DNA of 57,370 nucleotides from a virus (Duplodnaviria > Caudoviricetes). The notes beneath the pieces were generated by a model. That model saw only the letters and a program-made list of their open reading frames with translations, was not told the DNA's origin and did no database searches. The stretch covers positions 1 through 57,370 of IMG/VR virus record IMGVR_UViG_3300017707_001066, one strand, 5' to 3'. Both the position numbers and the translations under genes were made by a program. Numbering within the stretch: position 1 is the first letter of the stretch; each line of letters opens with the position of its first letter. Below are positions 2,137 to 28,666 of the stretch, one piece after another.

Positions 2137-2149
2137 CTCCCCTTTTTTT
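2123..2149. terminator. Bidirectional terminator at the convergence of + and - transcription
   Basis: Perfect stem aaggggagt-atta-actcccctt with a T-run on the right and A-rich sequence on the left. It spans the stops of both convergent genes. Confidence 0.8.
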
Positions 2150-5100
2150 ATAGTATCGTTGACTGGAAGCTCTTCACTGCTTGTGCAGGATCTAAGTTGT
2201 TTCCAGAGAAACCCATTAGTTTTAAGAAATAAGCCCAAGCTTTGCTGTCTCCTTTTTCCCAAATACCAGATCTTCTTTTATATTCTTCTGTAATATTCCA
2301 AGGTAGAATTTGATTACCAAACTTGAATGCTCTTTCTAAACTACTAGTAACAGCTGATGGAGATCTTATTACCCTGAATAAGTCACCAGGGTTTACATAC
2401 TGAGCAGTCTCACTTCTCATACGTATAGCTTGGTAAAGTATAAAGTTATATATCTTACCATCTTTAAGTTCTTCATCTTCATCATCTCCTGAGCCTACCA
2501 TAAATGCTAGTATAGTAATTAATGCTATCATAGACATTAGGATTGTAATCTCAGCAGCTGTTCTTCTGATTTGTGCTTTTTGGAAAGGAGTATATGTAGA
2601 CCAAGCTTCCATAATATTACCTTTATATCTTACAATGTCTTTCATTAATGTTTGAAAGAAAGTAATATAGTAACCTTCTGTTCCTGCACCTAACTCTTCA
2701 TCAAAAGTATTTTTCTTCCATCTGCGTTTCATAGCTGGTACAAAATACTTACGGTATAATAAGGCTAATCTACCTAATGCGTATCTTTGGATAGTAGCTT
2801 TGTCAAACTCATTATAAACCCCTTGCATTCTTTTATTTAATGCATGCAGTTCATTTTGGAAGTCCTTTCTTTTCTTTTCAGTAAAGTCTGTATTCTTTTC
2901 TAGATCTTCAACATAGACACCATATTTTTCATGAGCTTCATATAAACTAATTTCTAGTCCAGTGTTTTTATCTATGACTTTAGTAGCATTCATAAGAGCT
3001 AACATGGTAGTAGTCTGAACTTCATGCTCACCTAAATGCTGGTTAAAGAATAAAGTATTTGTTCTAAATAGTTTGTTAAACATACTACCAGTTACTTTTT
3101 TACCATATTCATCAACAAACTCTCCTTGCATTGCATCATAGTAATCAGATAATCTACCTATAAGTGATTCAGGTACAGGCTTACCAAAGTCAGCAATCAT
3201 ACTACCTGTTTGTTTAGCATATTGAGCTTTTGCTTTTAGATAATCTTTTTTACCAAAAAATTCTCCAGCATTAGCTTCAATGATTACTTGTAAGTTACCA
3301 CCAATATTATTGGCAACACCTTTAAGTAAATCTAAAGCAAGGGTAGTCTTAGCAGATATCCCCATTATAGTATTAGTTATCTTACCTGCAGATAATCCTA
3401 ATACTTCTTCTGCTTTTTGAGACTCTCCATATACTACCATTTCTATGAAGGCTTCTAAATGTTTCTCAGAATTAGACTCCCCATTCTTTTTAATATACTC
3501 ATCATAGCCAAGTTTTTTAGCAATAGCATCAACCATTACTTGACCTTTTGAGTTAGTTTCTAAAACTTTTCTGTCCCCTATGATAGTTCTAAATGCACTA
3601 ATTTCTGAGTGCATGCTATTCATAGCCTCATATCTATTAGCCATACCACTGAACATAAGGATAGATCTAGTTAAGTCAAAACTTATTTCTGATTCATCCA
3701 TAGGTTGAGTGTAATACAATGGCAAGAATCTAACGTTCTCTTCACTTAATGAGCCTACCCCAAACTCACTGTCATAAGCTTGAATATTTATTGCTTCTTT
3801 ACCTTTAGTTTTAAGATATTGGCCAAGCTTTGTATCTCTCATTCTTTCCATTTCTGTTTTAGGAACAGAAGGAATAAAGAGTCCCATTTGACCACCTTCA
3901 GGTAATTTCTCTTGAGCTTTTAGATATATATCAGTTAAATACTTATGGTATCTACCTTGTTCACTGATAGGATTACCGTTTGTATCATAGAGTTTTTTCC
4001 AGTTATCATTTAAATATGCTGAAGATGGTTCTGAAAGAGATCCGATATATACCGTTGTACCAGTTCTTTCATTAAAGAACATGTTACTATTTTTCCAGTC
4101 TTCAAATTCAGTATTAGTAATAATACCAGCATTTTTTTCTTTAACTTTTTGACTGATTATTTTATCAATCTCTTCTTGACTCTTAGCTGTTTTATTAGTT
4201 CTATACCACTGAGCTCTTTCTTTTTTCCAAGCTTTAAGTGCAGCTAATTCTGCAGGTGTAGGAGTTTCTGATAGTATAGGTTCTGGACCTATTCTATCAT
4301 ACATAGCTTTTTCAGCAGCTCTAAACTTGTTCATGTCAAACTTCTGAACAAATGAAGGTCTCTTAATTACAACAGGATTACCATCTTTATCTAGAGTAGG
4401 TGTACCGTCTGCATTATATTTTGGAACTTCTATAATTTCATAGATACCCTTATAGAGTTCTTTCATGTTATCTTTTGAAGCACCTATTTTACTAACAAAT
4501 TGTTGGTATTCTTTAGCTACTTCTCTTTGAAGTTTTTCATCTAAAACTCTTGCATCTTCAAAAGAACCTTTGATCATTTTAGCAAATAGAGCAAGTGCAC
4601 TATCATCTGAACTAATAAGTGGACTTAAAAGATAATCTAGAATACCCTCATCTTTATTAGCTTGTTTTAATAACTGCTCTAATTTATTTTCATCTAAAAG
4701 ATATCCTTCATATTGCTCTAATCTTTTATTAAGTTGAGCTAGTTTGTTTGCTCTACCTTTATCAGATAATGTAGTGCTAAGTTCTACTGCATTAATCTGT
4801 GCTTTTAAAGAATCTATTTCAGCTTGAGTTCTTTCTGTTGCTCTTCCTGATCTATATTCAATAAGTGTTTTAGATATTAATGGAATTGCCTCTGTAATAA
4901 ATTTAGAACGGATATTATCTCTAGTTGCAATAGCAGCAGTAAGCTTCTCTTGTGGAGTCATCTTACCTGGTTCTTTTTCTACTACATCATTGCTAAAGTA
5001 TTTATAGATGTCTTCTTTACTTATCTCATCTAATATGCTATAACCGTTAGCAAAGTCATTAAGAGATACTAACTCATCTAATAATTCTTTAGGATCTTTT

Positions 5101-5543
5101 CTATCTTTTTTAGCAAGTAAATTAGCCAATCTTTTCTTAGCTCTTAATGATCTTTCATAAGCATCATTAACAAACATGTTAATAGAGTCTACTCCCTCAA
5201 GAGCATCCATGTTTTCTTTAAGAGATTGATACTGTGCTTTAAGTGCAGTCTGATTTTTTACTTTAGTTCTTTTAAGATCATTAAGCTTTCTATCTATAAA
5301 GTATTTTACTTTCTTTACTGCATCCCCAAACTCTCCTTCTTTGAGTTCATCATCAGTCTGGTCTTCCGCTTCCTCTGTTTCTTCAGGGTCGTTAATGTTT
5401 GGGTTATCTGCATAACCTTCTTCTTCCCATATCTCTAAAGCTTTTTTATACAGTTCATCTTCATTAAGAGTAGGGTTTGCATCCACTACTCTTTGATAAA
5501 CATCTTTCCATTCTTGGCTTGCTCTATTTGGACATCCTAACAT
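2148..5543 (-). CDS. Large virion ejection/cargo protein (1131 aa) with a C-terminal hydrophobic helix
   Basis: Long helical ORF directly downstream of the virion RNAP. N-terminus is MLGCPN. Hydrophobic segment ITILMSMIALITILAFMVG lies near the C-terminus. Position matches crAss-like cargo genes. Confidence 0.65.
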   Translation of the reverse strand: MLGCPNRASQEWKDVYQRVVDANPTLNEDELYKKALEIWEEEGYADNPNINDPEETEEAEDQTDDELKEGEFGDAVKKVKYFIDRKLNDLKRTKVKNQTALKAQYQSLKENMDALEGVDSINMFVNDAYERSLRAKKRLANLLAKKDRKDPKELLDELVSLNDFANGYSILDEISKEDIYKYFSNDVVEKEPGKMTPQEKLTAAIATRDNIRSKFITEAIPLISKTLIEYRSGRATERTQAEIDSLKAQINAVELSTTLSDKGRANKLAQLNKRLEQYEGYLLDENKLEQLLKQANKDEGILDYLLSPLISSDDSALALFAKMIKGSFEDARVLDEKLQREVAKEYQQFVSKIGASKDNMKELYKGIYEIIEVPKYNADGTPTLDKDGNPVVIKRPSFVQKFDMNKFRAAEKAMYDRIGPEPILSETPTPAELAALKAWKKERAQWYRTNKTAKSQEEIDKIISQKVKEKNAGIITNTEFEDWKNSNMFFNERTGTTVYIGSLSEPSSAYLNDNWKKLYDTNGNPISEQGRYHKYLTDIYLKAQEKLPEGGQMGLFIPSVPKTEMERMRDTKLGQYLKTKGKEAINIQAYDSEFGVGSLSEENVRFLPLYYTQPMDESEISFDLTRSILMFSGMANRYEAMNSMHSEISAFRTIIGDRKVLETNSKGQVMVDAIAKKLGYDEYIKKNGESNSEKHLEAFIEMVVYGESQKAEEVLGLSAGKITNTIMGISAKTTLALDLLKGVANNIGGNLQVIIEANAGEFFGKKDYLKAKAQYAKQTGSMIADFGKPVPESLIGRLSDYYDAMQGEFVDEYGKKVTGSMFNKLFRTNTLFFNQHLGEHEVQTTTMLALMNATKVIDKNTGLEISLYEAHEKYGVYVEDLEKNTDFTEKKRKDFQNELHALNKRMQGVYNEFDKATIQRYALGRLALLYRKYFVPAMKRRWKKNTFDEELGAGTEGYYITFFQTLMKDIVRYKGNIMEAWSTYTPFQKAQIRRTAAEITILMSMIALITILAFMVGSGDDEDEELKDGKIYNFILYQAIRMRSETAQYVNPGDLFRVIRSPSAVTSSLERAFKFGNQILPWNITEEYKRRSGIWEKGDSKAWAYFLKLMGFSGNNLDPAQAVKSFQSTIL

Positions 5544-8500
5544 AACAGTTCACGTATTTTTGACATAATTTCATTGTACTCAGTCTGAGTTTCTGCGGCC
5601 TCTAATTTAGAGATAAATTCATTGATATCATAGCCTTTAGCTGCTATGATAAAGTTCATTTCAAGGTCATTAGCAATAGATCTAAGGTTTTTAAGATCAT
5701 CTTGTTTCTTACGTTGAGATACGGGCTTTTTAGATTTACCTGTTTCTACAACCCTACCTTGTATCATACTTACATTTTCCATTAGTACAGTACCATCAGT
5801 ACTAACTAGGTCATACAAGTTTGTTTTAGAATTTCTAGCCCAAACACTTTTACCTGGTACAGCATCAAAGACTTCAGGCAATTGATTACCATTAGCTATG
5901 AATGCTTCTTTAAACCTAGGTACATGATCTATTTGGATACTGTTTTTCTCAACACCACCTTCTTCATCTCTTATCTTAGCTTCTACATCTTGAATTTCAG
6001 AAAGTATTCTATTAATATCACTTTGGTAGTTATACTCACTGATATAATTTTCCTTACCTATTTGAAGGATATCAATGATCATGTTTCTGATTTCTTGCTC
6101 ATCTATAGGAGCTCTACCGGATTCTTCATAGAATTCATTTTCCATGATTTGATGAGCAGCTTGTGTAACAGATAGACCAGAATTACTTAATAAAGCTGAA
6201 TTAATATCTTTCCCAACACCTGTTTTAATACCAGTCTCTTTCATTGCAGAAGATGGAGTTATCTTAGGCATAGCAAGAGCTACAATAATGTTATTATTAT
6301 TTTGATAAGCCTTTTCTTGTAATTCTTGGTAGTTTCTTAAGTCAGCTTGAAGAATTGCTAAGTCTTGTTGTAGACTTGACGGATCATCTTGAGGAGATGA
6401 CATAGGAGACATAGATGGTGAAGTAGGCATGCCTGGTTCTATAGGCATAACTCTTCTCATAGTAATGGTTACCCTATAAGAACCTGCTGGATATGTTTCA
6501 CCATCAATCTTAGTAGTCAGTGTTGGTAAAAAACTATTTTGCGGAGTAGGGAATGTTCTATGCCATACTTCTCTATTAACACCATTTAAACCAAATATAT
6601 ATCCTGTACCTGGTTGAAGATTTAGTGTTTCATTTTGTGGTCCTAATCTTTCTATAGAGAAATTACCATCGCCACCTAGGTTAACACCAATTACTGGATA
6701 ATTAATAGCAGATCTACTTTCATCTACATCATTGTGAGAGTTAATAAAAGTATCTTTTTTATATATATTTATAATAGCACCATCATAATTGGTCATATCT
6801 ACACCACTTGCTTTTTGCATAAGTTCTCTAAATCTAGAACTGATTTCTCCAAGAGATTGACCATTTATTGATTCAGTGTAGTAACCATACTTAGGGTTGT
6901 TTACTATTTTGTCAGGAATATTAACAGCCTGTCTTCCGCGATTATTATCTGTATAATCCCATCTTAAACCAAGACCAATCATTTTACTAGCGCTAGCACT
7001 TTTAAGTGTTCTAGCACCTTGCTCTTCTATGAATGGTTTTAAGTAATTAAATAGTTCAAGTTGTTCTTCTTTTGTAAGAGCTCCTTGATTTACATAAATG
7101 CCTGGTTTAACTTCTTCTCCTTTAGGAGTTGCAGTAGGTTCAGCAGTCTTAAATGTATTTTCATATACATCTCTGATAGCTTGTTTAGCAGCTTCTTCAA
7201 CGTCTTGACCTCTATATTGAGGTCTTGGTACCCAATTACCATCTCTATCTTTTATACTGTAGGATTCAATATCTCTTGAGCCTACACCAGCAAAGTTTTT
7301 AGTAAGGATAGGAGTATTTACTTGTTCAAATTCTTTACCGTTAAATTTAAACCAACTTCTATTATTTAAATCCCATACATATACTGGTTTTCCAAGTTTA
7401 ATTCCTAATTGAACTGCAACATCAGTACCACCTTTAACTTTATTTAAAAGATATCCGTACTTGGATTTAGTACTATCAGTAAGATTTGGATTTGATTTAT
7501 CAGTAGTTGTAGTTAATTCAGCAATAGCATATACAGCATCAGCATTAGCTACTTGATAATAGTTTCTTACTTTAAGATTACCCTCTGTTGTATCAGGGTA
7601 TTTTTCTCCAAGTAATTTTTCTACCTCAGCTCTTGCTGTATCCATTTGTTCTTTAGTAAGAACTTCAGCTTTAACTCCAGCTTTTCTTAATTGAGCTGCT
7701 AAAGAAGCATTACTTGCTTCTCTATAATGTTTATGATTAATTACACCAAACTCTCTACCAATTATATCCCAATAAGTGTCTCCACCATATGCTCCTCCAG
7801 AATGATTTGTGTATTCAGAAGCTTCAGCTGAAATAGTTCCAGTTTGTTGTGGAGCTTTTTCTCCTTCTTCCCATTCAAATTCTTCTTCAAATTCTTCTTG
7901 TGGTAATGGTGTAACTTCATTGTAAGCTTCAAGTGAAACACCATAAGTTTTAACAGGTACTCTTTTATCTTTAATAAGTCTATTAAAAATCATATTAAGA
8001 GTATTATCACTCATGTAGTTTCTTTGGAAGTTTAAAGAAGCTTCAGTCATGTCTTTCATGAATGTTTCTACCTCTAAGATTTTTGGGAAACCAAATGTAG
8101 TTTTACCTACACCATGCTGGAAGAACATCATAGCTGAGAAGTCCTGGAACATTTTACTGATTCTAGCATTCTCAATTGGGTCTTCTACTTTTTTAATAGT
8201 AGGATCTGCTAATTGACTAATCTGTCTTTTATAGTTAGTAGCTACTGCTCCTTTAGCATTATTTTTATCAGCAAATTCTACAATACTAAAGTTACCTCTA
8301 AGTCTAGCTTTAGAAAGTTGATTAATGATAGGATAGTCAGCAACAAGTTTTACAGACTGTCTCATTTCAGTTAACATCTCAAGCAAACTTTCAGTATATG
8401 AGTACTTAGTAGTACCCATAATATATGCTGGATTAAAAGTATTTCTTAATGCTGTATCAGATACGTAGGCAAAGAATGCAGCATTCCCATCTTTATATTT

Positions 8501-11500
8501 CTGAAGATATTTTTGGAATGTTTTATCTTGTTCTACTGATTCAGGTAGTGTAGCAATAAGAACTTCTCTTTCAATAGCATATCTGTAATACTCATTTACA
8601 GTTTTAAAAGGATTTTGTTTAGGTGTGAATACATCTAATCCTCTAGAGGTATAACCTCTATCTGTTACATTAGTTACTAAATATGCTTTAGTATTAAAGT
8701 CTTGTTCTAAGAGTTTAGTATTTACAATAATCTCATTAGGTTTAACAACAACATCTTCTGGGGAATTGTTATCAATTCTAACTTTTTTACCTGCATAATT
8801 GTCTGGAACATTTGTTAATTGGCCATCAGCATCTACAAAATTAGATTTGTAGTTCTGATAGATAAAGTCCATTATAGCATTGTTAAACTTAGTAGTAAAG
8901 TATTCTTGACCTTTTACACCAGCACCGTATGTATTTTTAATCATTCTTGCTTTATACTTAAGTGCATCAGCAATATAATTAGAAATAACTTCATTAAGTC
9001 TTAATGGCATTAATGGTACAATCAAGTCCTTAATTAACTGTGTCTGATTAAATGAAGATAAGATAGATTTATTCTTAAAATTGTCTAAGAACTCCTGATC
9101 AATTTTAGATTTACCAGTTAGTGCTGCAAGAGCATCTTCTCTTTTATTAACCTGTTGTACTGTACTAAGTTTAACTGTATCACCAGTAGAAAGTATTTGT
9201 AAACCATTCATACCTTCTCCTTGCTTTTCTAATTCAATAAAGTTTAAGAAATAAGCAAGTTGTTTTAACACATCTTTTCCACCAGTTTCTAAAGATTCTT
9301 TAAGATCTTCAAGTTCAATCTGACCTTTAGGAAAATATTGTTTAGAAAGTATTTCTGCAGCATAGTAATATAAACTATCACTTGCTAAGTTTGCAGTCCA
9401 GCGGTATGGGAAAAGTTGTATTTGATCCTCTTCAGCAACAGTTCCTATTTTAGAAATGTATTCTATTTTAACTTCCCCTTTTTTAATACTGTTAACAATT
9501 TGATCTACAGTACGATTCAGTGTTGTATCCCTACCTATAGTAACTTCATAAACTGCATTCTTATCAGCTTTATATAAACTATTTAATACATCTTTTAAAT
9601 GCCTTATATTAGCTTCTTGTGTAATCCCTGTTAGATCTGCTTCATCTACATTATTTACAACTCTACTCATAATAGAGTTAATAGCTTTTGTTTTAGCACT
9701 AGCTTGACCACCTTCAAAAATAAATGCATAAGAACTATCAAATTTTCTTTGATCATTAATATACTTAGCAATTATTGGTTGGTTAACAAAGTAGTAAACT
9801 GTTTCTTGTGGTACACCAGCTTCAATCATGTCATTGATGACATTCATAGCTTGTGGTACCATCTTTAAAACAAATGGGAATGGATTCTTTGCACGGTCTA
9901 AGATACCATTAAGGTTATGAGAATTAATATCAGTAATTCTATCACCATTTTTATTTCTCTCATTTCCTAATGAAATATGTTCTTTACCATTAATAGTAAC
10001 TGTATTATGAGGGAATCTCATTTTAAAGTTAAAATCAATGTCAGTTTCTTCAGGAGAGTTAGTAATAGGATTCCATGCAATCTTTTTATATGTAGTAGGA
10101 AACTTAGCACCAAGTACTTTATTTAATACGTGGTTCTTAGTTCTTTTAGCCTGGATACCAAGTGATTTATTTAATGATAAGTTAGCATCATGGACATAAC
10201 GGTTGTAGCCAACTTCAAGCATTCTTGTAGGGCTAAGAACATTTTTCTTACCATCTTTGCTTTTATTAGCAGGAACGTTATGTGTATTTTTAAACTTATC
10301 ATAACCACCTGAATATTTTTCTAGGTCTTTAACATATCTTTCTACAAGATAAGTTTTGTTAGGTCTAGTTAAATATACAAAGTTATTTGGTAACATTAAA
10401 AGATCAATAGATGCTTTTAAGTATTCATTCTGAAGAAACTTCTTTTGTTTGTTTAGCAATTGTCTAGATGTAAGTACATCATCTGGTAGCTTACCATCTT
10501 TTTCTAACTGCTTAGTTTCAGCATATACTTTATCAAAATCAGCTACTCCTTTATTAATAAACTTACCTTCATTATCAAGGTTAGCTTGCATTAAGAATAG
10601 TTTATCAGCATCAAAGTCAGCACCAGACTTAGCAACAATCTCAGTAGGTAATATAATACTATTACCTGCAGCTGGGTTTAAGAAGTGCCAAACCTCTAAA
10701 GCTTCAATTGTGTTAGAAGCATCATTAGGAATCCTTGGACCAAACAAAGAAATAGATAATCTATTTTCAGCCAACCAAGCATCATCTTTAATTAGAACAT
10801 TGAGTTTGTCTAATGTACCAATCTCATTACCCTCTTTATCTTTTAACTTAAGTAAGTTCTTATAGTTATCAGTAAAAGGAATAGCACACTTAGCTAATGA
10901 TGTAGCAAGTCTTTTACCAGTAACCGGATCTATTTCACCTCTTCTATAGAATGCTAAAGTATTACTACCTAAAAGCTTTCTTCTTTCTGCAGGATCTGTG
11001 ATAGCATCATATGGAGCATCCCAAGAACCATTAGTAAATGTAGTAGGTGCCTGTACTAAAGGCTCACCATTAGTAGTTTGCTTAATCAATCTTTTATAGA
11101 TAATACTCATTAAGATTTTTTCTACACCATCTGCTTCCGGGTGTAAAGAAAGATCTGTTACAAGTTGACCATCTAGAGTTGTATTAAGGATTCTAAGCAA
11201 GTGTTCTGGTACACCATTGGCTCCAAGCTCTTCTCTGATTACAGATATAAACTTCTTAAGATTACCCTTGTATTTACCATTACCATTTTCATCTTCTACA
11301 TATTCATAACCAATTTCATTAAGAAGATCTTCTTTAAGTAAGTCTGAGTATTTAGCTACTTTATTTTCATAGTTTTTAACAATTGGCTCATTATCTTTAT
11401 CTATAATTTTACCATCACTATATTGGTTGTCTAAGTTAATTACACGGGTCTGAGTAGCAATTGGAATCTTTTTCTTAAGCTCATCATTGATTACAGTTAC

Positions 11501-14500: not shown

Positions 14501-17500
14501 GTCAAGTGCTACTTCTTGTTCTTCAGTTAAAGCTGGTTGTGGAAGTTGTTGTAATTCTATAGATGTATACTGTTTAGCCCCACCTGCAATGTAATTATCT
14601 AACTGTACTTGAGCATCTGATAAGTTAGATACCACCATAATGCTGATAGGTTTTCTACCAGATTTGATTTTATTGTGTACATAAAAGTCAGATACTACTT
14701 TGATTTCATGCCAGGATTCTCCTTTAATTCTATCACCACGTTTGTTATCTGCAGTAAGACTAGAGAAGTCTTGGATTTGAGACTTAAGGAAAATGTATTT
14801 ATCTTCTCCCTTACTACTCTTCATTATACCAACAGCATTCTCTTTAACTTCTTTTAAAGACTTAAAGCTGTTAAAGTCTGGGAAGTTAGTAATATCACCA
14901 AGTCTTTTCTTCTCAGCATCTAACTTATCTTGAAACTCTTTCTTAGCTTCATTGTACATCCAAGCTCTTTTAGCTGGATCTACAAGCATAACAATACTAG
15001 CAGACTTTAAACTTTTAGTATCACCAGATAGTTTTCTAGCTTGAAAGATATCATCTAGTTTTTGTGAGAAGAAACTATCAATAGATTCAGATACTAAGTC
15101 TGAGTCTGATTTACTTAATGCATCTTTACTAGGTTTAGTAGTACTAACAATACCACGGTCTAGTTCAAAGAAATGTACATTCTCTATTGAAGCAGTATAG
15201 TCATTGATTCTACCAAAGAAAAGATTCTCATAGAGCTCTTTTACTTTTGGTATATTCATTATATCTTGAACAGCTTCTTTTTTAGAGAACTTAGATTTTA
15301 TAGCATCAAAGATACTTTTTAAGAAGTCTAAGATTTTTCTAAACAAGTTGGTCTTAACTGGTGCTTCTTTAAATGGTTTTTCATTTTTAGCATAAGTTCT
15401 AAAGTCTTCTGCTAAGATTTCTTCAAGTTCAAAATAACTTTTACCAGCATATGGTTGATTACCGTTCTTATCAGTATAGTTTCTTAACTCATCATATAGT
15501 TTGAACTTCTGATCTTTAGTTAAGAACAACTGTGAGAATGCGTGCCATGATTCATGGTATACATCTACATAGGAACCTTTTGCTGGATTGATTTGGATTT
15601 CACCAAGTAAACCTTTACTACTAACATTAGTGGGGTTAAAAAGATTAGCTGCAGACAAAACAAACTTAGCATACACATTAGAGTTAACTAAGTTAGCTGC
15701 TTGCTCAAGTGACAAATATTTTTGAAGTTCTTTACCTGCAGGGCTATTCTCCCACCAGTTCTTAGCATTAGCTTGAACTTGTTTAGCTAATATTTCATTT
15801 ACATAACCAGCTCTTTGTAAATCTTCCCAACCAGGAATGTCAGATATATTTACACCTGGATTAGTTACTACAGTACTAACTGTAGAGTTATCATTGTCAG
15901 GTGTAGGGATTTCTGGATCAGCTATACCTTCTACAACATCAATTGCAGCTTCAGTATTTTTCTGAACCGGAGTTTGTTTCTTAGCAAACTGTTCATTAGA
16001 ACTTTCACGGACATAACCTACAAGCTTATCATTTGCATATACAGCAATAGCATTGTATTTAATTCCTTCTGTTGTCTGAAGTTCTGGTACAAGTTCTAGT
16101 CTAGCTTCTACATTAAGAGCTTGGCCTGTAGATAATGCTTCTTCTGTAACTTCTGCAAAGTTCTCAGGAGTAATCTTTAATTCTTGATTGTAGAATCTAG
16201 CTTTATTACCATTAGCATCAAAGAAGTCAAAACCTGTAGTTGTAGTAGTAGGCTTAGCAATTCTACCAGTAATTACTTCTCCATTCTCAAGTCTCTCAAT
16301 AAGTGCTGTTCTAACCTTAGCTACATCTGAGTCATCTTGAATAGCTTTATCAGCATTGTTCTTATAGTTTGTTTCATTAGCCTTTTGTAATCTAGCTAAG
16401 ATATCATCTGGCTGAGAAAAAAGTAATGAGTAATTGTAGAATCCTGGATCAAGATTAGTAATATCAATAGTAGCATCTACATTGTTCAATAGAAAATCTA
16501 AGTAAGGTTCAGTCCCTATTGTTTTAGTTCCTATATCATATCTTAGGTACTTACCATTTTTTCTAGGTTCCTCTGCATATACAATCTTAGTAGGACCACC
16601 ATTATTACCTTCAGTCAATGCAGTATACAATGCTGTTTTAATATTAGCAATGTCTTGTGCGGTTGCATTTTTTAAATCTTTGTTAGACAGTTTATATGGT
16701 GTATATACTCCTTTCAATCCTGTTTCTGGATAAATTTTAAGAGTAACTACTTCTGTTTCTGGATTCATCAAAAGAGCATAGTTTCTTAAGCTAGGATGAA
16801 TTGTAGAAGGAATAAACTGATTAATATAGCTTTGCTTAATACTAAATGGAATCTCTGGATTAACTATAAACTCAGCAATCTCTGTTGCTAACTCATTAGT
16901 AATATTAGGTCTTTCTAAAAGAAAGTTAGTTCCATTAAGAGTAATTTTTGCTCTACCAGCAGCAGTACCAGATTTTATGATACCAATACTGTCATATACA
17001 GCATTGCTCATTCCTGGAAACTTAATGATATCTTTTAAGCTAATGTAACTTGAAGTCAAGTAACTAGGTACACCTGTACTAATTCCTGTTAATGGAATCT
17101 GCATAGGTTTAGTATTTACTATTTCTTCTTTAAGGTTGTATAATCTTTTGAGACTTTCTTGTTGCTGCTTGTCAATCATCTTAACAAACTCAGCATAATC
17201 TCCATCTGAAGGCTGATAAATTTTTTCAGCTATTTCCTCAGCTGATTTTATAATGTTTTCAGTATCATAAATATCAGTAGCAGTGTATCTATTATTCTTA
17301 ATACGTACATCTTTCATGAACTGGTAAACTAACTTACCTTTCTCTTGAGTAGTAATGTCTCCATTCTCATCAAAGTAAATAGGCTTACCATCTTTATCAC
17401 TTACTACAAGAATAACTCTATTGAAAGCTTGTGTAACTCCAGGTTGGTTTAATCTGTTTTTAACTAATGTTTTAGATTTTGTAACTTCTGCCACAGTAGT

Positions 17501-18172: not shown

Positions 18173-21100
18173 TACTTACAAGTTAAATTTTCTAACAATT
18201 CTTTATCAATCTTATCCATTGATTGTTTTTCAGCAGCAGCTTTTGCATCAGCCATACCATTAAGATCATTTTTTAAGAAGTCATTAAGTACTTCTGTAGA
18301 ATATTTTGCAAGATCTTTTTCATCCTTAGTAGGCTTATAAGTGGTTGCATTATCACTTGATCCATCAAGTACGTCTTTTAACATATACTGTTCATTAAAT
18401 TGATCCAATCCTACTGTATAAGGCTTTGGTCTTTTACCACCATCCTTGACTAGTGTTACCGTATTATCTTCAGTATTATAAGAAACAACTCTTACTTTAC
18501 CTCCTTCTCTAATATACGGATTTTTTTGCTTTTCACTAGTAAAGATATTAGTTTTAGCCTCATAAATGTCACCTTTTTGGATATTAGTTTCATTCATTAT
18601 AGGTAATTCATTGTTAGCTATTTCCTGTTCTCTTTGTGCAAGTAAACTGTTTAAATTATTTATACCTTCTGAAGTAATAATTAAGTCATCACTGATAGCT
18701 TCATTAAGCAATTTTCTAGCTTTCTCAATATCAGTTGCAGTACTAATTTCTTTAGTTAAGTTAGCTACTGTAGTTGGGTCATCTAACTTACCTTCTAAAC
18801 CTTCTTTTGCAATGATATCATCTCTTAAAAGCTTAAGGTCTTCAATCTTAATCTGGAGTCTTTTCTTCTCATCAGTTCTTGTATACCTTGCTTGCTCTTT
18901 AGCAGTAAGCTCACTGATAACTTGGTTAGCTTGTTTAATAGCAGTTCTTGGTCTACCATTATTAGCTTCAAAGTTTATACCCTCAACAGTAGCTATGAAG
19001 TTTTGAGTTTCACCTAAGAATTTAGTATTACCCATCAGAGTAAAGATTTGTCTTTGATAATCTGACAATTCTTTAATCTCTGTATTATCAGTACTTTGTG
19101 TTTTAAGGTACTGAATTCTTTTTACAGCCTCATGGATTAATTCAGAATAAGCTCCCATAGTAGGTGCTAAACTTTTTACTTCAGCTGCAGTAACAATACC
19201 TGATTGTTTTAATATATCTACGGCCTCTTCTTGACCTGTTGTCGGAGAAGATGTGCTTTCTGCAATTCTTTCATGGAAAGAAAATCTTTCAGCAAATGGA
19301 GAATCTTTCTTGAGCTCTTCTATAATAAAAGGACTATTGTCATCAAGATCAATATTAGCAAAGGATACGGTATTAGCTAAAGGTACAAGTGAAGCTTTAA
19401 GATCTTCAATTGTTTTCTTAGCTGCTTCTTCAGTATTTCTGTACTTATTAATGATGTTCTCATATGCTGAAGCTTTAGGAGTATTAGCTGCAGGTGGTTG
19501 TAATTCTTGTCCATTTAGAGCAGGAAGTTCTGAACCATCATCATTCCATTCAAAGTCTACTTCTTCTTCATCATCTGCTAATGGTCTTGTAGGAGCAGCT
19601 TTTTTCTTAAGTGGAAGTATCTGGTCTAACTTATCTTTGTATGCATCAGGATACAAAGGAATAAACATACTACTCTTTGTTTCTGATTCATCTACATCAA
19701 AGTCAATGTCTCCTGCTTCAGTAACTACATAATTACCATTATCATCTTTAGGGAATAGTAATTGTTTGTAAATAGTTTCTGTTGTAGGTTTACCAGCTTT
19801 AATAATCTGATTAGTTTCTTTATTAGTAACTCTTTGAACAGGAAGTAATGCTACTTTAGCTTTTACACCAATCATGTTCTCTAACATTCTAGCATAAGCA
19901 CCTTGCTGTAAAGTATAGTTTTCTCTTTTTGAGAAATACTTTTTAGTAGCATTCTTTAGTCTATTAACTTTATTAAAGTTATTCCACTTAGTTTCACTAC
20001 CAGTTTTAAGGTCTACAATAAAGATATTACCTTTTCTGTCTGCCATAACAAGGTCAATCTCCCCGGCAATTCTATCTTTAGAACCATCAGGCTTAGTAAT
20101 ATCTGAATCATATACTACAAGACCTCTACCTACAATATAAACTTCTCTATCATCTACTCTTCTTTTAAGCTCAGTAAGATACCCTGTTTCACCAAAGAGG
20201 TTGTCATATGCTTCTCTAGTAATAATCTTCTCATCAAACTCTGGCTTAATACCTTTTTCAAAGTAGTCTTTAGCATCATCTACAAAGTTTCCTACAATTC
20301 TACCATCTTCATAAGATCTTTCTGCAGCAAACTTTTGAATAAGCTCTCTTGTAGTATCAGAAGAAGCTATATCTTCAACTGCTAATTGATCTACAATAGA
20401 TTTTACTTTATTAATATTTTGTTCTACTACAGTTCTTGTATTAGGTAACTCATTATCAATAGGAGTTAAATCTTTATTTATAAAGTTATCTATATGATTA
20501 CCTTTTCCAGGGACTTTTGGAACATCCCATTCTCTAATATCTCCAATATTTATATCTAGTTCTTGTGATAGTGCTTTTAAAATAGGGCTACCATAGTAGT
20601 CATTTATTTCTTGGCCGGATAATTTATTTAACCAACCTTCATCACTGATGCCAAAAATCGGATACCATTTACCTGAGGTAACATCAACTTTACCACCACT
20701 ACCTGTAGATAGATAGAATGGAACATTAATACCATTTACTGAAAGGACAACAATTTTTCTACCATTATAATCAATTATATCTGAAGTACCTTTAAGATAT
20801 TTTTTACTACTAGTAGCATCATCCCATACAACAGTATCATAATCAATAGCTAATCTATTCTTTACAATATCTGCAGCTAATTTGGTGTTTTTAGGAGACT
20901 GTGCTCGTTCTAACTCAACTTCAAGATCTTGTTTTTGCTTAGTAAGTAGAGCAGCTCTTTTAGAGTTATCATCTGCATATGCCGCAGCAATCTTCTCATC
21001 AAGCTTGGCTAAATTCTTATTAATCTTATCAACATAAAGTTCCTGATCAATCTGAACTTTTGATTTACCTTCCAAGCTTTCTACAAACTGTTCTAACTCA

Positions 21101-24100
21101 TCATATAGTTCACTGTTAAAACCATCTAGTTCTTCAGCTCTAATCTGAGCCATGAAGTTCATTGCAGATGTTTTGTTTAAACCATCTTTACCAATAGTTT
21201 TATTAAATATTGTATCAATGGTTGGGGCAGACTTATATGTATAGTCTTTACTTTCTACATCACGGATAGCATTAGTAACTCTTCTATGGATAAGACCTTT
21301 AATTCTATAAGCAATGTCTCCTTTTTTAAGTCCGGTAGTAGGGTCATCTTCAGTAAGCATGTAGCCTTCTTCAACACCCTCTTGTTGCTTAATAAGATTT
21401 TGTATAGCTTTAATAGATTTCTTCTGTTCAGGAGTATAACCTTTTAAAGTCATAGCATCTATGATCTTCTCAATGTTGGCTACTTCTACATTGAACTTTT
21501 TAATCTGCTCAGTGAGTTGTTTCTTTTCTTCAGCATCTTCAGATAAATCTTTAGCTTGTTGAAGAGCTTTAATTCTATCATTAATAAGATCCTGATAAAC
21601 TCTTAAGTCTTTGATAGACTTACCTTTAGTACTAATAGTGTTACCTTCAAAAGTAAAAGTATAGTCAGACTTTTCTTCATCTGCTGCTGCAGTTTTGTCT
21701 TTCTTGAACTGTTCTTCTACTCTTTGTTTTTCTTTATTGTACTTATTAGTAATCTTTTCTACTTCTTTAGGATCAGGCATTCCTGTTTCAGGATCTTTAG
21801 GTAATGCATCTATGTCAGCTTTCATGTCAGCATCAAGCTTATCCATTTTGCTTTGATACTCCTTGTTTACAAACTCAGATTTAGGTTTCTTAACCGTCTC
21901 TCTAAGTTCTGCCATCTTAACAAAGTACTCACGGTATATTTGGTTATACTCTTCAGTACCTCTTTTGTAGACTTTATTAGTTGCAGCATTAAATATTTCA
22001 GTTGGAGGAGTATTGTTATTTACATACTCCTGGAAGTCTTCAGCACTAATAAACAATGCTTCATCTGCTAAAGCATTTAAAAGACTGTTCATCTCTACTT
22101 TAGTGATCTGATCTAAGATCATTTTAGTATAGTACTCTTCTCTATTATGATAGAGTTTATCCATCCATTCCGAGTTTCTTTGAACTAGGTCAATAAAATT
22201 CTCAGGGTTGTTTAAAGCTTCTACATACTTAGCAACTTCTTTATACTCATCATTAAGTTTATAGAAGTCTAGTAGTTGCTCAAAGCCAGCATCTAAGTCT
22301 TCATCAAAAAGAATCTCATCTTGCTCAAGGCCTAAAGTTTTTAAGTACTTGTGATGAGAATCTCTAAGTGATTTAATATATGGTAATGCTAAGTTCTCAT
22401 CACTAGATGAACCAAGTTTCTGATCCATTCTCTCAATAATTTGTTCTTGAGTTGGTTCAGCACCTAATTCTTTTTTAAGTTCAGCAATGATTTCTCCAGC
22501 ATATTGACCACGGCTAAAGAATCTGTTAAACCCTTCATAAGCTTCAGAGTAAGACTGTAATGAAGCAATCTTATCTTCTAAAGATTTAATTCTTTTTGCA
22601 TTAGGTTTTGGACTAGCTTTTTCAGCAGCCAATTCTGTTTCAAATAAACCTACTTGATTAATTAAAGCATCCGGTTTAAAGATAGCTGTAGAATCTGTAC
22701 TATTTAGAACATTAAACCCTTTACCTTGTGTATACTTAGTTTTAATTGAAGTTAACCTAGATTTTACATCTTCAAATGTTTCATTAAAGTATACAGCATT
22801 ATTTACTGCTTTATTCCAAGCATGGTATGTTAATGCTTTACTGTGATAGTCTGGATCATTTTCATCCAAAGACATTACATCAATTGGATTAGGGTACTTA
22901 CTTGTATAAGCTTTTTTCTTAGCTTTTACAGAATCTAATTTTTGTATAGACTGATCTATTCTGGATTTATACTTAGGAATTTCTTCTTGAGCAATACCAC
23001 CCATAGCATCCATAAACTCATCATCCGTCATTTCTTTGAATGATCCAAGTTTATCTTTAAACTGATCAACAGTACCAGTTTCCATCATGAAAGAAACACT
23101 GTCTACAAAAGCTTGATTCTCTGCATCAAGAGCTTCTTTCTTTGTACCTGTTCTTTTAATTTGAGCAGCAATATCTTGTGCACCTAAATTGTAAACATTA
23201 TCTGATAAAAACTCTCCAATTTTTACATCATTGAGTTGCTTAACTAAGTTTGAAGCAATATTTTCTTTATCAGTTTTCCATTTAGTATATGCTTCTTTTT
23301 TAAAGATTCTATTATACTGTACACTTAAGAAAGGAATAGCACTATTAACTGGGGCAGCAAATGTACCCATTAAAAAACCAGATGCAAATGTTTCAAGACC
23401 TTGTCCTGAAAACTGCTTACCTAATTCTTCTCTAAAGTAATCACCTCTTTGTCTAGCAAGACTATCTTTAATTGCAGCTTTAGAATACTCATAGCTTGAT
23501 CTAGCATCAGAACCAAATGTATCAATGTAATATCTCTCATTAGCTCCTGCAATAACTTCCTGTAAGTTTTCTTGGATACCTTCAGAGAAGTTAGCCTTAA
23601 AGTATTTTACAGTACCTAATGCCGATTTGCTAAGAGGATCTCTATACCAGCTTTTAGCTAAGTTTTTAAGATTGTTTTTTTCAAAAGCAAAAGCTTTTGT
23701 AGTTTTATCATAAACTACTTTACCAAGTTTACCGAACTTACCACTCTCATATTTAGCAATATCATCAGTAACTGATTTTAAATAGTTGCGGATACCACCT
23801 CTTGGTCCAGTAATATTATCAAATGTAATTTTATTAGATAGGTATATAAGTCCGGTGTTTAAGTATAGAGTACTTAAAGAAGCTTCCTTAGCTTGTTTTC
23901 TAAATTCATACTCATCTTTATCTGTAGGTGCAACACCAGTTGCTTCATAGTGCTTGTTATATAGTTCATCAAACACTTTGTTTTCATTCATACCAGCCTC
24001 AAGTCTAGCTTCAGATAAAGCCATGTTAAGGTTTCTAACATCACGATAGAACCCTCCAGCAGTCTTGGATATTTTAGCTAAGTTAGTTAAGTTATCTACT

Positions 24101-25098
24101 TTAGATAAACCCCCTAAAGCATCCATAGTATTCTCTAATGGATTCAATACTCTTCCTAGATTACTTCTTAATCCAGCATCTGCAGCTTCCCAAAACTTTC
24201 TTGCTTCAGGTAAGTTACTAAATGTCTTAAGACTTTGACGTAATGCTTTGGCACCATCGGTTACCATACCAAAGCCTCTAAATATTTTACTAGCTTTATT
24301 TACATTATTAGCAGTTGTAAATGCAAAACTTGCTCCACCAGTAATTGGAGCTAAAACAGCTCCTGCAATTTCTTCTACCACAGCTTCTCCAATGATACCT
24401 GCAGTATAACCAAAGTTCATTAAAGTATTGTTGAAGAAACTACCAAAGCCACCTTTAGTAGACTGACCTATAGCTGCAGCTTCTTCATACAATCTAGCAT
24501 CTTCTAAGTCAGCACTTGTAAAGTCCCCTTGAATCATTTTGGCTAAACTCTTAGGTCCAGACCAAAAACCATTCTTTAATAACGGAACAAATGAATGTGT
24601 AAGCATTCTATTAGCATCATCCCACCAAGTGGTTGCAGCATTAAAGTTTGCTTCATTATTTTTAAGTGGGTGAAACCCTACTTTATCAAAAGTCTCTTGA
24701 CCATATGCTGCATATCTTTTATAGAATGCGTTTCCGGATGGACCAGAATCATAAGAGTATATTTTTCCATATACATTCTGATCTTGATTGGCTTGGTATA
24801 AAGAGTTTATGTATGCTTCATAAGAATCTCCAAAATCTTTTGGGCTTGCTTTTGGATTTGGTCCTGGAGCATTGGGAGCATTACCTACTACATTATCTCT
24901 AATTGCTCTGTTAGGTAAATCTGCTTTTGGTTGTGGGTATGCAGGATAGTAAACATCTGGAAAATTAATAGATTGTGGTCTAGGCATTCTTCCTTCAAAA
25001 GGAGAAAGACCTTGTGAATCTAATACAGGTCTATTAATTTTTCCAAACTCTGGACCCAATGAATCCAGAGGATTAAATACTTCAGTTTCTTCTGCCAT
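18172..25098 (-). CDS. Large virion ejection/cargo protein (2308 aa) with an internal PD-(D/E)xK nuclease-like domain
   Basis: IAGEIDLVMADRKGNIFIVDLKTG...YTLQQGAYARML motif (~19880-20075), a Gly/Ala-rich hydrophobic N-terminal region and coiled coils. TAATG coupling to the RNAP gene. Confidence 0.7.
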   Translation of the reverse strand: MAEETEVFNPLDSLGPEFGKINRPVLDSQGLSPFEGRMPRPQSINFPDVYYPAYPQPKADLPNRAIRDNVVGNAPNAPGPNPKASPKDFGDSYEAYINSLYQANQDQNVYGKIYSYDSGPSGNAFYKRYAAYGQETFDKVGFHPLKNNEANFNAATTWWDDANRMLTHSFVPLLKNGFWSGPKSLAKMIQGDFTSADLEDARLYEEAAAIGQSTKGGFGSFFNNTLMNFGYTAGIIGEAVVEEIAGAVLAPITGGASFAFTTANNVNKASKIFRGFGMVTDGAKALRQSLKTFSNLPEARKFWEAADAGLRSNLGRVLNPLENTMDALGGLSKVDNLTNLAKISKTAGGFYRDVRNLNMALSEARLEAGMNENKVFDELYNKHYEATGVAPTDKDEYEFRKQAKEASLSTLYLNTGLIYLSNKITFDNITGPRGGIRNYLKSVTDDIAKYESGKFGKLGKVVYDKTTKAFAFEKNNLKNLAKSWYRDPLSKSALGTVKYFKANFSEGIQENLQEVIAGANERYYIDTFGSDARSSYEYSKAAIKDSLARQRGDYFREELGKQFSGQGLETFASGFLMGTFAAPVNSAIPFLSVQYNRIFKKEAYTKWKTDKENIASNLVKQLNDVKIGEFLSDNVYNLGAQDIAAQIKRTGTKKEALDAENQAFVDSVSFMMETGTVDQFKDKLGSFKEMTDDEFMDAMGGIAQEEIPKYKSRIDQSIQKLDSVKAKKKAYTSKYPNPIDVMSLDENDPDYHSKALTYHAWNKAVNNAVYFNETFEDVKSRLTSIKTKYTQGKGFNVLNSTDSTAIFKPDALINQVGLFETELAAEKASPKPNAKRIKSLEDKIASLQSYSEAYEGFNRFFSRGQYAGEIIAELKKELGAEPTQEQIIERMDQKLGSSSDENLALPYIKSLRDSHHKYLKTLGLEQDEILFDEDLDAGFEQLLDFYKLNDEYKEVAKYVEALNNPENFIDLVQRNSEWMDKLYHNREEYYTKMILDQITKVEMNSLLNALADEALFISAEDFQEYVNNNTPPTEIFNAATNKVYKRGTEEYNQIYREYFVKMAELRETVKKPKSEFVNKEYQSKMDKLDADMKADIDALPKDPETGMPDPKEVEKITNKYNKEKQRVEEQFKKDKTAAADEEKSDYTFTFEGNTISTKGKSIKDLRVYQDLINDRIKALQQAKDLSEDAEEKKQLTEQIKKFNVEVANIEKIIDAMTLKGYTPEQKKSIKAIQNLIKQQEGVEEGYMLTEDDPTTGLKKGDIAYRIKGLIHRRVTNAIRDVESKDYTYKSAPTIDTIFNKTIGKDGLNKTSAMNFMAQIRAEELDGFNSELYDELEQFVESLEGKSKVQIDQELYVDKINKNLAKLDEKIAAAYADDNSKRAALLTKQKQDLEVELERAQSPKNTKLAADIVKNRLAIDYDTVVWDDATSSKKYLKGTSDIIDYNGRKIVVLSVNGINVPFYLSTGSGGKVDVTSGKWYPIFGISDEGWLNKLSGQEINDYYGSPILKALSQELDINIGDIREWDVPKVPGKGNHIDNFINKDLTPIDNELPNTRTVVEQNINKVKSIVDQLAVEDIASSDTTRELIQKFAAERSYEDGRIVGNFVDDAKDYFEKGIKPEFDEKIITREAYDNLFGETGYLTELKRRVDDREVYIVGRGLVVYDSDITKPDGSKDRIAGEIDLVMADRKGNIFIVDLKTGSETKWNNFNKVNRLKNATKKYFSKRENYTLQQGAYARMLENMIGVKAKVALLPVQRVTNKETNQIIKAGKPTTETIYKQLLFPKDDNGNYVVTEAGDIDFDVDESETKSSMFIPLYPDAYKDKLDQILPLKKKAAPTRPLADDEEEVDFEWNDDGSELPALNGQELQPPAANTPKASAYENIINKYRNTEEAAKKTIEDLKASLVPLANTVSFANIDLDDNSPFIIEELKKDSPFAERFSFHERIAESTSSPTTGQEEAVDILKQSGIVTAAEVKSLAPTMGAYSELIHEAVKRIQYLKTQSTDNTEIKELSDYQRQIFTLMGNTKFLGETQNFIATVEGINFEANNGRPRTAIKQANQVISELTAKEQARYTRTDEKKRLQIKIEDLKLLRDDIIAKEGLEGKLDDPTTVANLTKEISTATDIEKARKLLNEAISDDLIITSEGINNLNSLLAQREQEIANNELPIMNETNIQKGDIYEAKTNIFTSEKQKNPYIREGGKVRVVSYNTEDNTVTLVKDGGKRPKPYTVGLDQFNEQYMLKDVLDGSSDNATTYKPTKDEKDLAKYSTEVLNDFLKNDLNGMADAKAAAEKQSMDKIDKELLENLTCK

Positions 25099-28030: not shown

Positions 28031-28666
28031 TTAAATATATTTAAATGTTGTTTTGTTAGCTCTTTTACCAGATAATTTTCTACTTAGAGTACTTTTTGTA
28101 ATATTTAATACTTCACATAACTCAGCTAAAGAATTATATACAATATTTGTAGTTGTATCTATAATTTTTTTACCTTTTTTTAGTCTATGCACTTTTTTAA
28201 AATCTATAAGTTCTCTTGATCTTTGTAATAATTCTTTATGCTCTGGTGAAAGAGTTCTTTCTTTAAGTTTTTGAATACAAAGTTCTGATGGTTTTTGACC
28301 TTTATTAGCAATTCTTAGTTTTTCCTTTGTTTCTTCAGAGTGTATAGAATTTCCATTTGGGTCTGTCGGTTTTAGATTATAACCAATTGTTCTATCTAAG
28401 CAATTAAGTTCATTAACCCAGTAGTGTTCTTTAGCATGTAAATCATTTATATCACATTTTTCAACTATTTCAAAAACAAAGTTTTCTTCACCATACTTAA
28501 TCCATGCTTTTTGTAAATAACTATTATGATGTTTATTTTGTCTTAGATCATAGAGATGACCATTTATTCTAGTTCTTACATTAGAGGCACAACCAATATA
28601 TATCTTACCACTAGCAATACTAGTAATCTTATATATTCCGGGATTTGATTGTAAGTACGTTGCCAT
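28031..28666 (-). CDS. Free-standing GIY-YIG homing endonuclease with NUMOD3-like and C-terminal HTH (NUMOD1-like) motifs
   Basis: GIYKITSIASGKIYIGCASNVRTR, HHNSYLQKAWIKYGEENF, GYNL, HSEETKEKLR and YNSLAELCEVLNITKSTLSR. Confidence 0.9.
   Translation of the reverse strand: MATYLQSNPGIYKITSIASGKIYIGCASNVRTRINGHLYDLRQNKHHNSYLQKAWIKYGEENFVFEIVEKCDINDLHAKEHYWVNELNCLDRTIGYNLKPTDPNGNSIHSEETKEKLRIANKGQKPSELCIQKLKERTLSPEHKELLQRSRELIDFKKVHRLKKGKKIIDTTTNIVYNSLAELCEVLNITKSTLSRKLSGKRANKTTFKYI

Follow-up and report, generated by a model that had tools for sequence, protein, structure and literature searches.

No phages of the human gut are more abundant than the Crassvirales, which have to pack a cargo of ~0.7 MDa that includes an RNA polymerase, thread it through a long narrow tail and activate it. 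The 2023 atlas of the crAss001 virion could not resolve the cargo (PMC10172136), and a 2026 paper on phage N4 calls for structures of crAss-like RNA-polymerase cargo. We have studied a viral DNA of 57,370 nucleotides (nt), IMG/VR record IMGVR_UViG_3300017707_001066, the whole of which is called the window below. It encodes three consecutive giant proteins, A, B and C, that are almost devoid of cysteine (Cys), and nearly all of the cysteines that they do possess lie where the end of one protein is followed by the beginning of the next. What are these terminal cysteines for? The analysis described here suggests that they probably join the cargo proteins head to tail by disulfide bonds in the virion.

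The crAss-like identity of the window is given by its muzzle protein, which matches PF25731 crAss_MUZ (E 1.4e-30), and its major head protein, which matches phrog_11589 (E 8e-21). Protein A matches crAss001 gp47 (BLASTP, E 3e-8), and B matches phi14:2 gp66 (E 3e-13) and crAss001 gp50 (E 5e-9). Residues 506-1110 of C match phi14:2 gp65 (E 1e-47), and residues 591-1083 match crAss001 gp49 (E 2e-60). Homologues of all three have been detected in virions, according to tandem mass spectrometry notes in the phi14:2 record and to mass spectrometry of crAss001 (PMC10172136), and in the crAss001 atlas they are described as cargo for which passage of the tail requires partial unfolding (PMC10172136). 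The genes, given as open reading frames (ORFs) with lengths in amino acids (aa), and their cysteine codons are as follows.

18172-25098, minus strand: protein A, first member of the chain, 2308 aa (ORF; homologue of crAss001 gp47)
5537-18172, minus strand: protein B, virion RNA polymerase with N- and C-terminal extensions, 4211 aa (ORF, homology)
2148-5543, minus strand: protein C, last member of the chain, 1131 aa (ORF; homologue of phi14:2 gp65 and crAss001 gp49)
18178-18180, minus strand: codon of Cys2307, the penultimate residue of A (...ENLTCK; exact count)
18161-18163, minus strand: codon of B Cys4 (MITC; exact count)
10886-10888, minus strand: codon of the internal B Cys2429 (LAKCAIP), incidental (Val in the relative L003)
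5540-5542, minus strand: codon of B Cys4211, the last residue (...RELLC; exact count)
5532-5534, minus strand: codon of C Cys4 (MLGCPN; exact count)

The first-pass annotation of this DNA had counted five cysteines in the three proteins, four of them at the junctions, with none at the outer ends of the series and with overlapping genes. Exact counting agrees on every point. There are five cysteines in 7650 aa: one in A at residue 2307, three in B at residues 4, 2429 and 4211, and one in C at residue 4. Thus four of the five lie at the C-terminal end of A, both ends of B and the N-terminal end of C, and the N-terminus of A (MAEETEVF) and the C-terminus of C (KSFQSTIL) are free of cysteine. The probability that at least four of five randomly placed cysteines would fall within 20 junction-end residues is ~2e-10 for the window alone. 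Both overlaps are present in the DNA, a TAATG stop/start at 18172 between A and B and a 7-nt overlap ATGTTAG at 5537-5543 between B and C, and we infer translational coupling of the three genes only from these overlapping stop and start codons.

The scarcity of cysteine is also marked. The other 19 ORFs of the window contain 155 cysteines in 9893 aa (1.57%; maximum 8.1%, in an ORF of 626 aa), a rate at which ~120 would be expected in 7650 aa. Internal cysteine in A, B and C amounts to one in 7650 aa, far below that rate. The contrast drawn earlier between cysteine-free ejection proteins and cysteine-rich proteins elsewhere holds for the other ORFs as a whole; it fails for three large neighbouring ORFs of 972, 1173 and 975 aa, which are free of cysteine too. 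The label cysteine-poor therefore fits the whole putative cargo block, beyond A, B and C. The first of these neighbours lies immediately upstream of A, and neither side of its junction with A has a cysteine; from the sequence, this marks the start of the chain.

We examined whether the arrangement is peculiar to the window, using 81 loci from IMG/VR (denoted by L-numbers). One was found in a search with C, and the other 80 rank highest among 440 loci confirmed as related in the polymerase core. In a separate search C matched 85 phage records. The core of B itself matched only 6 records of the phage collection, and that of crAss001 was used as the query instead; A gave no match to the phage collection by tblastn. 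Clustered by identity of the polymerase core, the 81 loci fall into 71 groups at 90%, 58 at 70% and 28 at 50%. A junction was defined as a pair of neighbouring ORFs on the plus strand, each 200 aa or longer, whose ends both lie within the locus, and was called paired where a cysteine lies no more than 10 residues from the upstream C-terminus and no more than 8 from the downstream N-terminus.

Terminal cysteines are conserved in these relatives, and they are conserved in pairs. Out of 156 junctions, 127 have cysteine on both sides, 22 on neither and 7 are mismatched (Fisher p = 6e-20, with the kinship among loci ignored). The 22 junctions without cysteine flank the chain, lying between a cysteine-free cargo ORF and A or between C and an unrelated ORF, with one exception inside L080. 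Five of the mismatches are due to small ORFs inserted between chain members (L048, L055), and the remaining two occur in L074 and L080. In 113 of the 127 paired junctions the last cysteine is 0-3 residues from the C-terminus, and the first cysteine of the downstream protein is at position 3 (61 junctions), 4 (36), 5 (22) or 6 (8). Chain members of the 81 loci contain 289 cysteines in 469,661 aa, of which 263 are terminal and 26 internal.

The ends of the chain behave differently from its interior. Both terminal cysteines are found in 48 of 49 internal members, and a C-terminal cysteine in 0 of 45 complete last members. An N-terminal cysteine is absent from 22 of 26 complete first visible members. 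The remaining four begin with a B-type protein; three of these are preceded by a cut-off upstream fragment with a cysteine-bearing tail, whereas the ORF ahead of the fourth (L055) encodes a small protein that is unrelated.

The same picture emerges from 120 B homologues gathered independently from the protein database: 109 have both end cysteines, 8 the C-terminal one only, 3 the N-terminal one only and none lacks both, with 229 of 251 cysteines terminal in 460,563 aa. An alignment of 14 A proteins over their last 220 aa (mean column identity 32%) has the cysteine as its sole invariant column, and a corresponding alignment of 14 B N-termini has just two such residues, C4 and L6. The N-terminal motif CPN[KR] recurs in the C proteins of many loci. 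The cultured phages conform as well. In phi14:2 the cysteines are at residue 1797 of 1797 in g067, at 3 and 2179 of 2180 in g066 and at 3 in g065, with no others; in crAss001 they are at 2339 of 2341 in gp47, at 5, 1334 and 2404 of 2412 in gp50 and at 5 in gp49. Judged from these comparisons, the pattern is a conserved rule rather than chance, and it spans all 28 deep lineages sampled among the 81 loci, with one locus that breaks it.

If each pair of cysteines connects two proteins, what happens where the proteins are divided differently between genes? The module occurs in four architectures: A/B/C; A/B/mid/C, with an additional protein between B and C (L003, L005, L008, L011, L060 and others); AB/C, in twelve fused proteins of 4.2-4.9 thousand aa and in FpV4 gp32; and A/BC, in p-crAssphage (record BK010471) gp45/gp44 and crAss002 gp32/gp33. 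There is one cysteine on each side at the real protein boundaries of all four.

The additional split gains a pair. The mid proteins (289-655 aa) have cysteine at position 3 and at the last residue, and the counterpart region that is fused within the window's B is free of cysteine. A conserved C-terminal module of ~130 aa ends in cysteine in the window's B and in L013 and L014, and likewise in the mid proteins of L003, L005, L008 and L011.

The fusions lose a pair. The first-pass annotation had asked whether gene fusions fall at these junctions; they do, and both cysteines are then missing. In the A-B fusions, A-like sequence is followed by polymerase with no cysteine at the fused part, and 10 of the 12 have a single cysteine in the whole protein, at the C-terminus; the extra cysteines of the other two (L081 and L051) are within the polymerase part. 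In the B-C fusions of p-crAssphage and crAss002 the N-terminal cysteine is kept, the C-terminal one is absent and none lies near the B/C join, the position of which was extrapolated from alignment offsets and not aligned. This gain of pairs at splits and loss at fusions is expected if the pair replaces a peptide bond between its two ends, and it argues against B being closed on itself or A being bonded to C. Two comparisons that seemed to offer a clean split/fused pair were rejected: L011 against L013 proved to be a module swap, and L046 against L069 involves an added module of 646 aa.

The rule does not depend on the genes being contiguous. It holds with gene A on the opposite strand, in crAss001, DAC15 and IAS virus, and the pairing is kept across gaps of 130-550 nt and small inserted genes. 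These cases exclude a nucleotide-level cause acting through overlapping genes.

Contact between the ends was addressed by structure prediction for one junction. The last 220 aa of A and the first 280 aa of B, each with its own alignment of 14 rows, were folded together. The model's own confidence score was 0.66 (runs 0.70, 0.66 and 0.62), against 0.00 for the best control. In the calibration of the method, 58 of the 80 solved complexes attained that mark, as did 2 of the 110 mismatched pairs; these counts are approximate given the use of our own alignments. The runs shared at least 57% of contacts, with a partner predicted local distance difference test (pLDDT) value of at least 56. The predicted interface involves residues 166-219 of the A piece (its cysteine being 219) and residues 1-24 (including Cys4), 41-64 and 91-100 of B; the last 55 residues of A, cysteine included, are thus placed against the cysteine-bearing start of B. 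Folded alone, the end of A forms a long helix (170-203), a short helix (206-215) and a loose tail of five residues that bears the cysteine, and the start of B forms a loose cysteine-bearing peptide of seven residues followed by a helical bundle (helices 8-103). The prediction supports docking of the C-terminal helix of A on the N-terminal bundle of B. The two elements map to the window as follows.

18178-18339, minus strand: helices at the C-terminus of A (residues 2254-2307), the predicted docking element for B (co-fold, secondary structure)
17873-18172, minus strand: B residues 1-100, flexible Cys4 peptide then helical bundle, the predicted acceptor (co-fold, secondary structure)

One bond of this kind has been observed directly. 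In the cryo-electron microscopy structure of the pre-ejectosome of cyanopodophage A4 there is a disulfide between Cys1715 of ejection protein gp27 and Cys5 of gp26 (PMC12002296). We find in the A-4L genome that gp27 (1717 aa) has one cysteine, at 1715, and that the product of the next gene, gp26 (1114 aa), has one cysteine, at 5. The resemblance to the window is close: consecutive genes for ejection proteins, a lone cysteine near the upstream C-terminus and another around position 5 of the next protein, and otherwise none. In A4, too, a long C-terminal helix docks into an all-alpha partner, and there the bond is seen in the virion (PMC12002296), whereas the docking in the window is a prediction. 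A4 differs in having one link where the crAss-like chain would have two or three, and in lacking an RNA polymerase; the disulfide is described, in the available text, as a local stabiliser, without a rule that follows gene splits and fusions (PMC12002296). No blastp or phmmer match with E <= 0.01 was found between A4 gp26 or gp27 and A, B and C of the window, the phi14:2 and crAss001 proteins or any ORF of the loci. What is shared is therefore a device, and not membership of a family.

Other ejection systems share the scarcity of cysteine and lack the pairs. Suppression of cysteine in the ejection operon of Schitoviridae (N4 gp50-52, DEV gp71-73) has been published and attributed to passage through the periplasm (PMC11445570). 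By our count N4 gp50, gp51 and gp52 have 0 cysteines in 4294 aa. Here too a giant ejected virion RNA polymerase and its partners are nearly free of cysteine, but the Schitoviridae proteins have no terminal cysteine and hence no junction pairs, where the crAss-like proteins have one pair per boundary. The T7 internal core proteins gp14, gp15 and gp16 are ejected sequentially through the short tail. They contain 0 cysteines in gp15 and gp16 and a sole cysteine at residue 2 of gp14 (MCWAAA; L091 1229-1819), and thus have no junction pairs, unlike the crAss-like chain. Within the Crassvirales the cargo modules of crAss001 (gp47/gp50/gp49) and phi14:2 (gp67/gp66/gp65) are homologous to A, B and C, and their genes likewise follow the muzzle and cargo genes in this order; B of the window is ~1.9 times the length of phi14:2 gp66 and carries an AlkB-like domain.

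Fused forms of the polymerase module have been discussed before as 'polyproteins' that are expected to be cleaved into their components (bioRxiv 10.1101/2020.03.07.982082). They contain the same domains as one polypeptide, i.e., as a covalent chain. The cysteine rule suggests the opposite logic to such cleavage, in which separate genes are re-joined after translation. It is already known, then, that ejection proteins can be poor in cysteine, and that a single disulfide can join a C-terminal to an N-terminal end in A4. What is new is the proposed multi-link chain including a virion RNA polymerase, conserved in crAss-like phages with one cysteine pair per boundary.

The first-pass annotation had proposed that the C-terminal cysteine of each protein pairs with the N-terminal cysteine of the next. 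The junction survey, the splits and fusions, the co-fold and the A4 precedent all support that pairing, and from this sequence, model and analogy evidence we think it probable that the junction cysteines form head-to-tail disulfides in virions. The packaged cargo proteins A, B and C would then be joined into one covalent chain of ~7,650 residues, each link being a disulfide between a cysteine 0-3 residues from a C-terminus and one at positions 3-6 of the next protein. For crAss001 the corresponding chain would amount to ~690 kDa, from masses of 262.5 kDa for gp47, 276.9 kDa for gp50 and 154.5 kDa for gp49 (PMC10172136).

The steps beyond disulfide formation are less certain, among them packaging in fixed ratio, ejection in order and release by reduction, which the first-pass annotation had also proposed. 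We envisage that the ends would begin by docking non-covalently, the C-terminal helix of one protein on the N-terminal bundle of the next as predicted, and that docking in the reducing cell would gather the cargo proteins in equal numbers. After lysis or release, oxidation would lock each docked junction; disulfides do occur elsewhere in the crAss001 virion (PMC10172136). The chain might then pass the tail unfolded as a single thread, each protein drawing in the next. The cysteines are at the extreme ends of proteins otherwise free of them, so that the junction would be nearly as thin as a peptide and nothing else would be cross-linked, making threading possible. Finally, the reducing cytoplasm of the host would cut the links and free the polymerase and its partners. 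In evolutionary terms the cysteine pair would stand in for a peptide bond, the same chain being encoded by two, three or four genes.

Several considerations weigh against this proposal. Disulfides cannot form in the reducing cytoplasm where the heads are filled, and the bond must therefore form later; moreover, many of the hosts live in the anoxic gut. The co-fold covers the A-B junction, one of two, and its score is the model's own confidence. The loci are related, and the counts are not independent events. In L074 the cysteine of A lies 18 residues from the C-terminus. Among the database B homologues 11 of 120 lack one end cysteine, and these may be truncated gene calls. Internal cysteines are more frequent in gut phages, with 8 in p-crAssphage gp44 (7 internal) and 10 in IAS gp056 (9 internal). 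The A-B fusion point could not be mapped by profiles of the A C-terminal and B N-terminal ends, which after five iterations found the split forms only (31 + 24 domains), and BLAST of the split ends gave one unrelated match.

The locus that breaks the rule is L080 (7193-19187), where the polymerase is split into pieces of 1943 and 871 aa that match residues 859-1417 and 1467-1673 of gp66. The 1943-aa piece has no C-terminal cysteine. Between the matching parts lie ~1,600 aa in all, made up of ~480 aa of extra tail and an ORF of 1161 aa that has cysteines at 353 and 360 and no terminal one; a Pfam search with this ORF gave nothing above the cut-off. Either a mobile insert or an error in the assembly might account for the interruption.

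In the available text of the atlas the crAss001 cargo gave no clear density and cysteine is never mentioned (PMC10172136). The word 'cysteine' occurs 0 times there and in the preprint (bioRxiv 10.1101/2020.03.07.982082), and 'disulfide' 0 times in the preprint; the virion disulfides that the atlas reports are in the tail and gp57 (PMC10172136). Our search of the literature, in the parts of the texts available, brought up no remark on cysteines at the ends of crAss-like cargo proteins.

Could the cysteines be explained in another way? The pattern might have arisen by chance or as a side effect of the overlap between stop and start codons. The window's genes do overlap at both junctions, which places the end codons under nucleotide constraint, but the placement is already far too improbable in the window alone, the distance of the cysteine from the ends varies, and the pattern survives intergenic gaps, inserted small genes and the transfer of gene A to the other strand. 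The survey has refuted this explanation, and we give it virtually no weight. Alternatively the cysteines might be end signals for packaging, processing or lipid attachment, shared by neighbouring ends and making no cross-link. There are motifs beside some of them (MxxCAL[ST] at the start of B, CPN[KR] at the start of C and DPFKC at some ends), and a C-terminal cysteine followed by 0-3 residues looks superficially like a lipidation box. Yet these motifs vary by lineage while the cysteine stays, and a signal would not be expected to pair strictly one to one across boundaries. The chain's free ends need packaging too and never carry cysteine, as the counts for complete last (0/45) and first visible members (22/26 without) show. 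We therefore regard end signals as unlikely.

The two remaining explanations accept that the cysteines make contacts. They might form disulfides with other partners, such as the cysteine-rich head, portal or tail proteins, or in homodimers, or in a ring of B together with an A-C bond, and so anchor the cargo in the head. The virion proteins around the cargo are indeed rich in cysteine, the crAss001 tail is stapled by disulfides (PMC10172136), and small cargo-like proteins with a lone terminal cysteine exist (FpV4 gp30 at Cys5, crAss002 gp30 at Cys 550 of 557). However, this leaves unexplained why an A-B fusion loses precisely the A C-terminal and B N-terminal cysteines and keeps the B-C pair, and why a new split creates one cysteine per new end; in addition, the co-fold is predicted to pair the C-terminal end of A with the N-terminal end of B. 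Other partners therefore appear improbable. Finally, the ends might be docked as we propose with the two cysteines sharing a metal ion (Zn, Fe or Cu), the clasp opening on loss of the metal; a shared metal was the other option named in the first-pass annotation. A pair of thiols that meet at an interface is able to bind metal, and the cysteine of A is often directly preceded by acidic residues (LLDDLEC, FEDTTSDC). But there is one conserved cysteine per side and no invariant His, Asp or further Cys, so that a normal four-ligand site is not visible, and the only solved case with this signature, A4, is a disulfide (PMC12002296). We consider a metal clasp very unlikely.

A disulfide-linked chain would have consequences for how these phages are read. 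The cysteine rule predicts which ends touch and how the proteins follow one another along the chain, it accounts for the occurrence of one module as two, three or four genes, and it ties a single structural observation in cyanophage A4 to a pattern across the sampled crAss-like lineages. A broader proposal, which we put forward tentatively and with rather less confidence than would make it probable, is that crAss-like phages and at least one unrelated cyanophage build a redox-cleavable 'pseudo-polyprotein', a thread of 5,000-8,000 residues joined by disulfides, pulled in unfolded and cut by the host cytoplasm. If this were true, a terminal cysteine pair and a peptide bond could replace each other in evolution. 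Payload modules (AlkB-like oxygenase, NADAR, helicases, kinases) could then be divided, merged or exchanged by lineages with the chain intact, and this may be a general design principle of the ejection systems of short-tailed phages.

The rule is also an aid to annotation, since the true starts and ends of the giant genes can be read from the cysteines. The annotated start of crAss002 gp33 (L087 10926-11030) puts its first cysteine at residue 35. An in-frame Met33 gives MSCTPSNP, which resembles the start of p-crAssphage gp44 (MSCGNIKLVG), and from the sequence Met33 is probably the true start.

Two small cargo-like proteins upstream of the chain have a lone cysteine with no obvious partner: FpV4 gp30 (L085 2084-3880; Cys5) and crAss002 gp30 (L087 231-1904; Cys 550 of 557). 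Each may form a homodimer or a link to another part of the virion. Separately, p-crAssphage gp39 and gp37 (L084 25260-26527), ~2 kb from the chain genes, are annotated as a putative thioredoxin and a truncated thioredoxin, and may be worth attention should reduction be what cuts the chain.

Further features of the window in and around the chain are the following.

10604-10618, minus strand: DFDAD catalytic motif of RNA polymerase, B residues 2519-2523 (alignment with gp66 and gp50)
6455-7102, minus strand: 2-oxoglutarate-Fe(II) oxygenase (AlkB-like) payload domain, B residues 3691-3906 (PF13532, E 1.4e-11)
25110-28028, minus strand: 972-aa cysteine-free ORF immediately upstream of A (no cysteine on either side of its junction with A)
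37292-42715, minus strand: Crassvirus muzzle protein, 20 cysteines (PF25731 crAss_MUZ, E 1.4e-30)

The polymerase core of B is alignable over residues 2020-2532 with residues 918-1374 of phi14:2 gp66, and the DFDxD motif is present in all 81 loci. A phmmer search with the whole of B matched no PDB chain, and a PDB sequence search with C gave none; profile A1 matches 6vr4_A, but trivially, as A1 includes the phi14:2 sequence itself. The internal Cys2429 of B was considered as a relic of an old gene junction on account of its resemblance to the start of crAss001 gp49. This was rejected, as it sits inside the polymerase core alignment; the stretch is absent from phi14:2 and crAss001, and the residue is Val in L003, a 47%-identical relative.

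The match of B to PF13532 scores 45.4 bits against a cut-off of 31.2. At comparable places B homologues have payload domains of several kinds: PF13532 AlkB-like, PF08719 NADAR/YbiA, PIF1/AAA_30 helicases, HD and the zeta-toxin-type kinase PF06414. On this sequence evidence the ejected polymerase seems to be a carrier of swappable enzymes, which are possibly a counter-defence.

A zincin-like HExxH motif has been stated for phi14:2 gp65 (bioRxiv 10.1101/2020.03.07.982082). None is found in the window's C, unlike phi14:2 gp65, and HE[AS]WH occurs in B instead: HESWH is at residue 873 (window ~15554-15556), in the N-terminal extension, and 88 of 92 B homologues have HE[AS][WF]H, ~1630 aa before DFDxD. 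In this clade the motif thus appears to sit in another member of the chain.

Residues 1640-1754 of A (window ~19837-20178) form a weak PD-(D/E)XK nuclease-like stretch (phrog_298, E 2.5e-6; PF12705, 20.4 bits, below the cut-off of 22). A DFDVD at A residue 1799 was considered as a second catalytic site and set aside as incidental, being confined, in the first 17 loci, to the window and its closest relative L004.

Three cysteine-free ORFs lie between the muzzle gene and A, at 25110-28028, 30785-34306 and 34365-37292, all on the minus strand. These ORFs of 972, 1173 and 975 aa gave no Pfam match with E <= 0.01, and they probably correspond to gp45 and gp46, cargo proteins of crAss001. The 972-aa ORF is immediately preceded by a GIY-YIG/homing-endonuclease-like ORF at 28031-28666, minus strand (phrog_314, E 3e-37). 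The two share their first six residues, MATYLQ, and are encoded there by different codons, with 12 of 18 bases identical.

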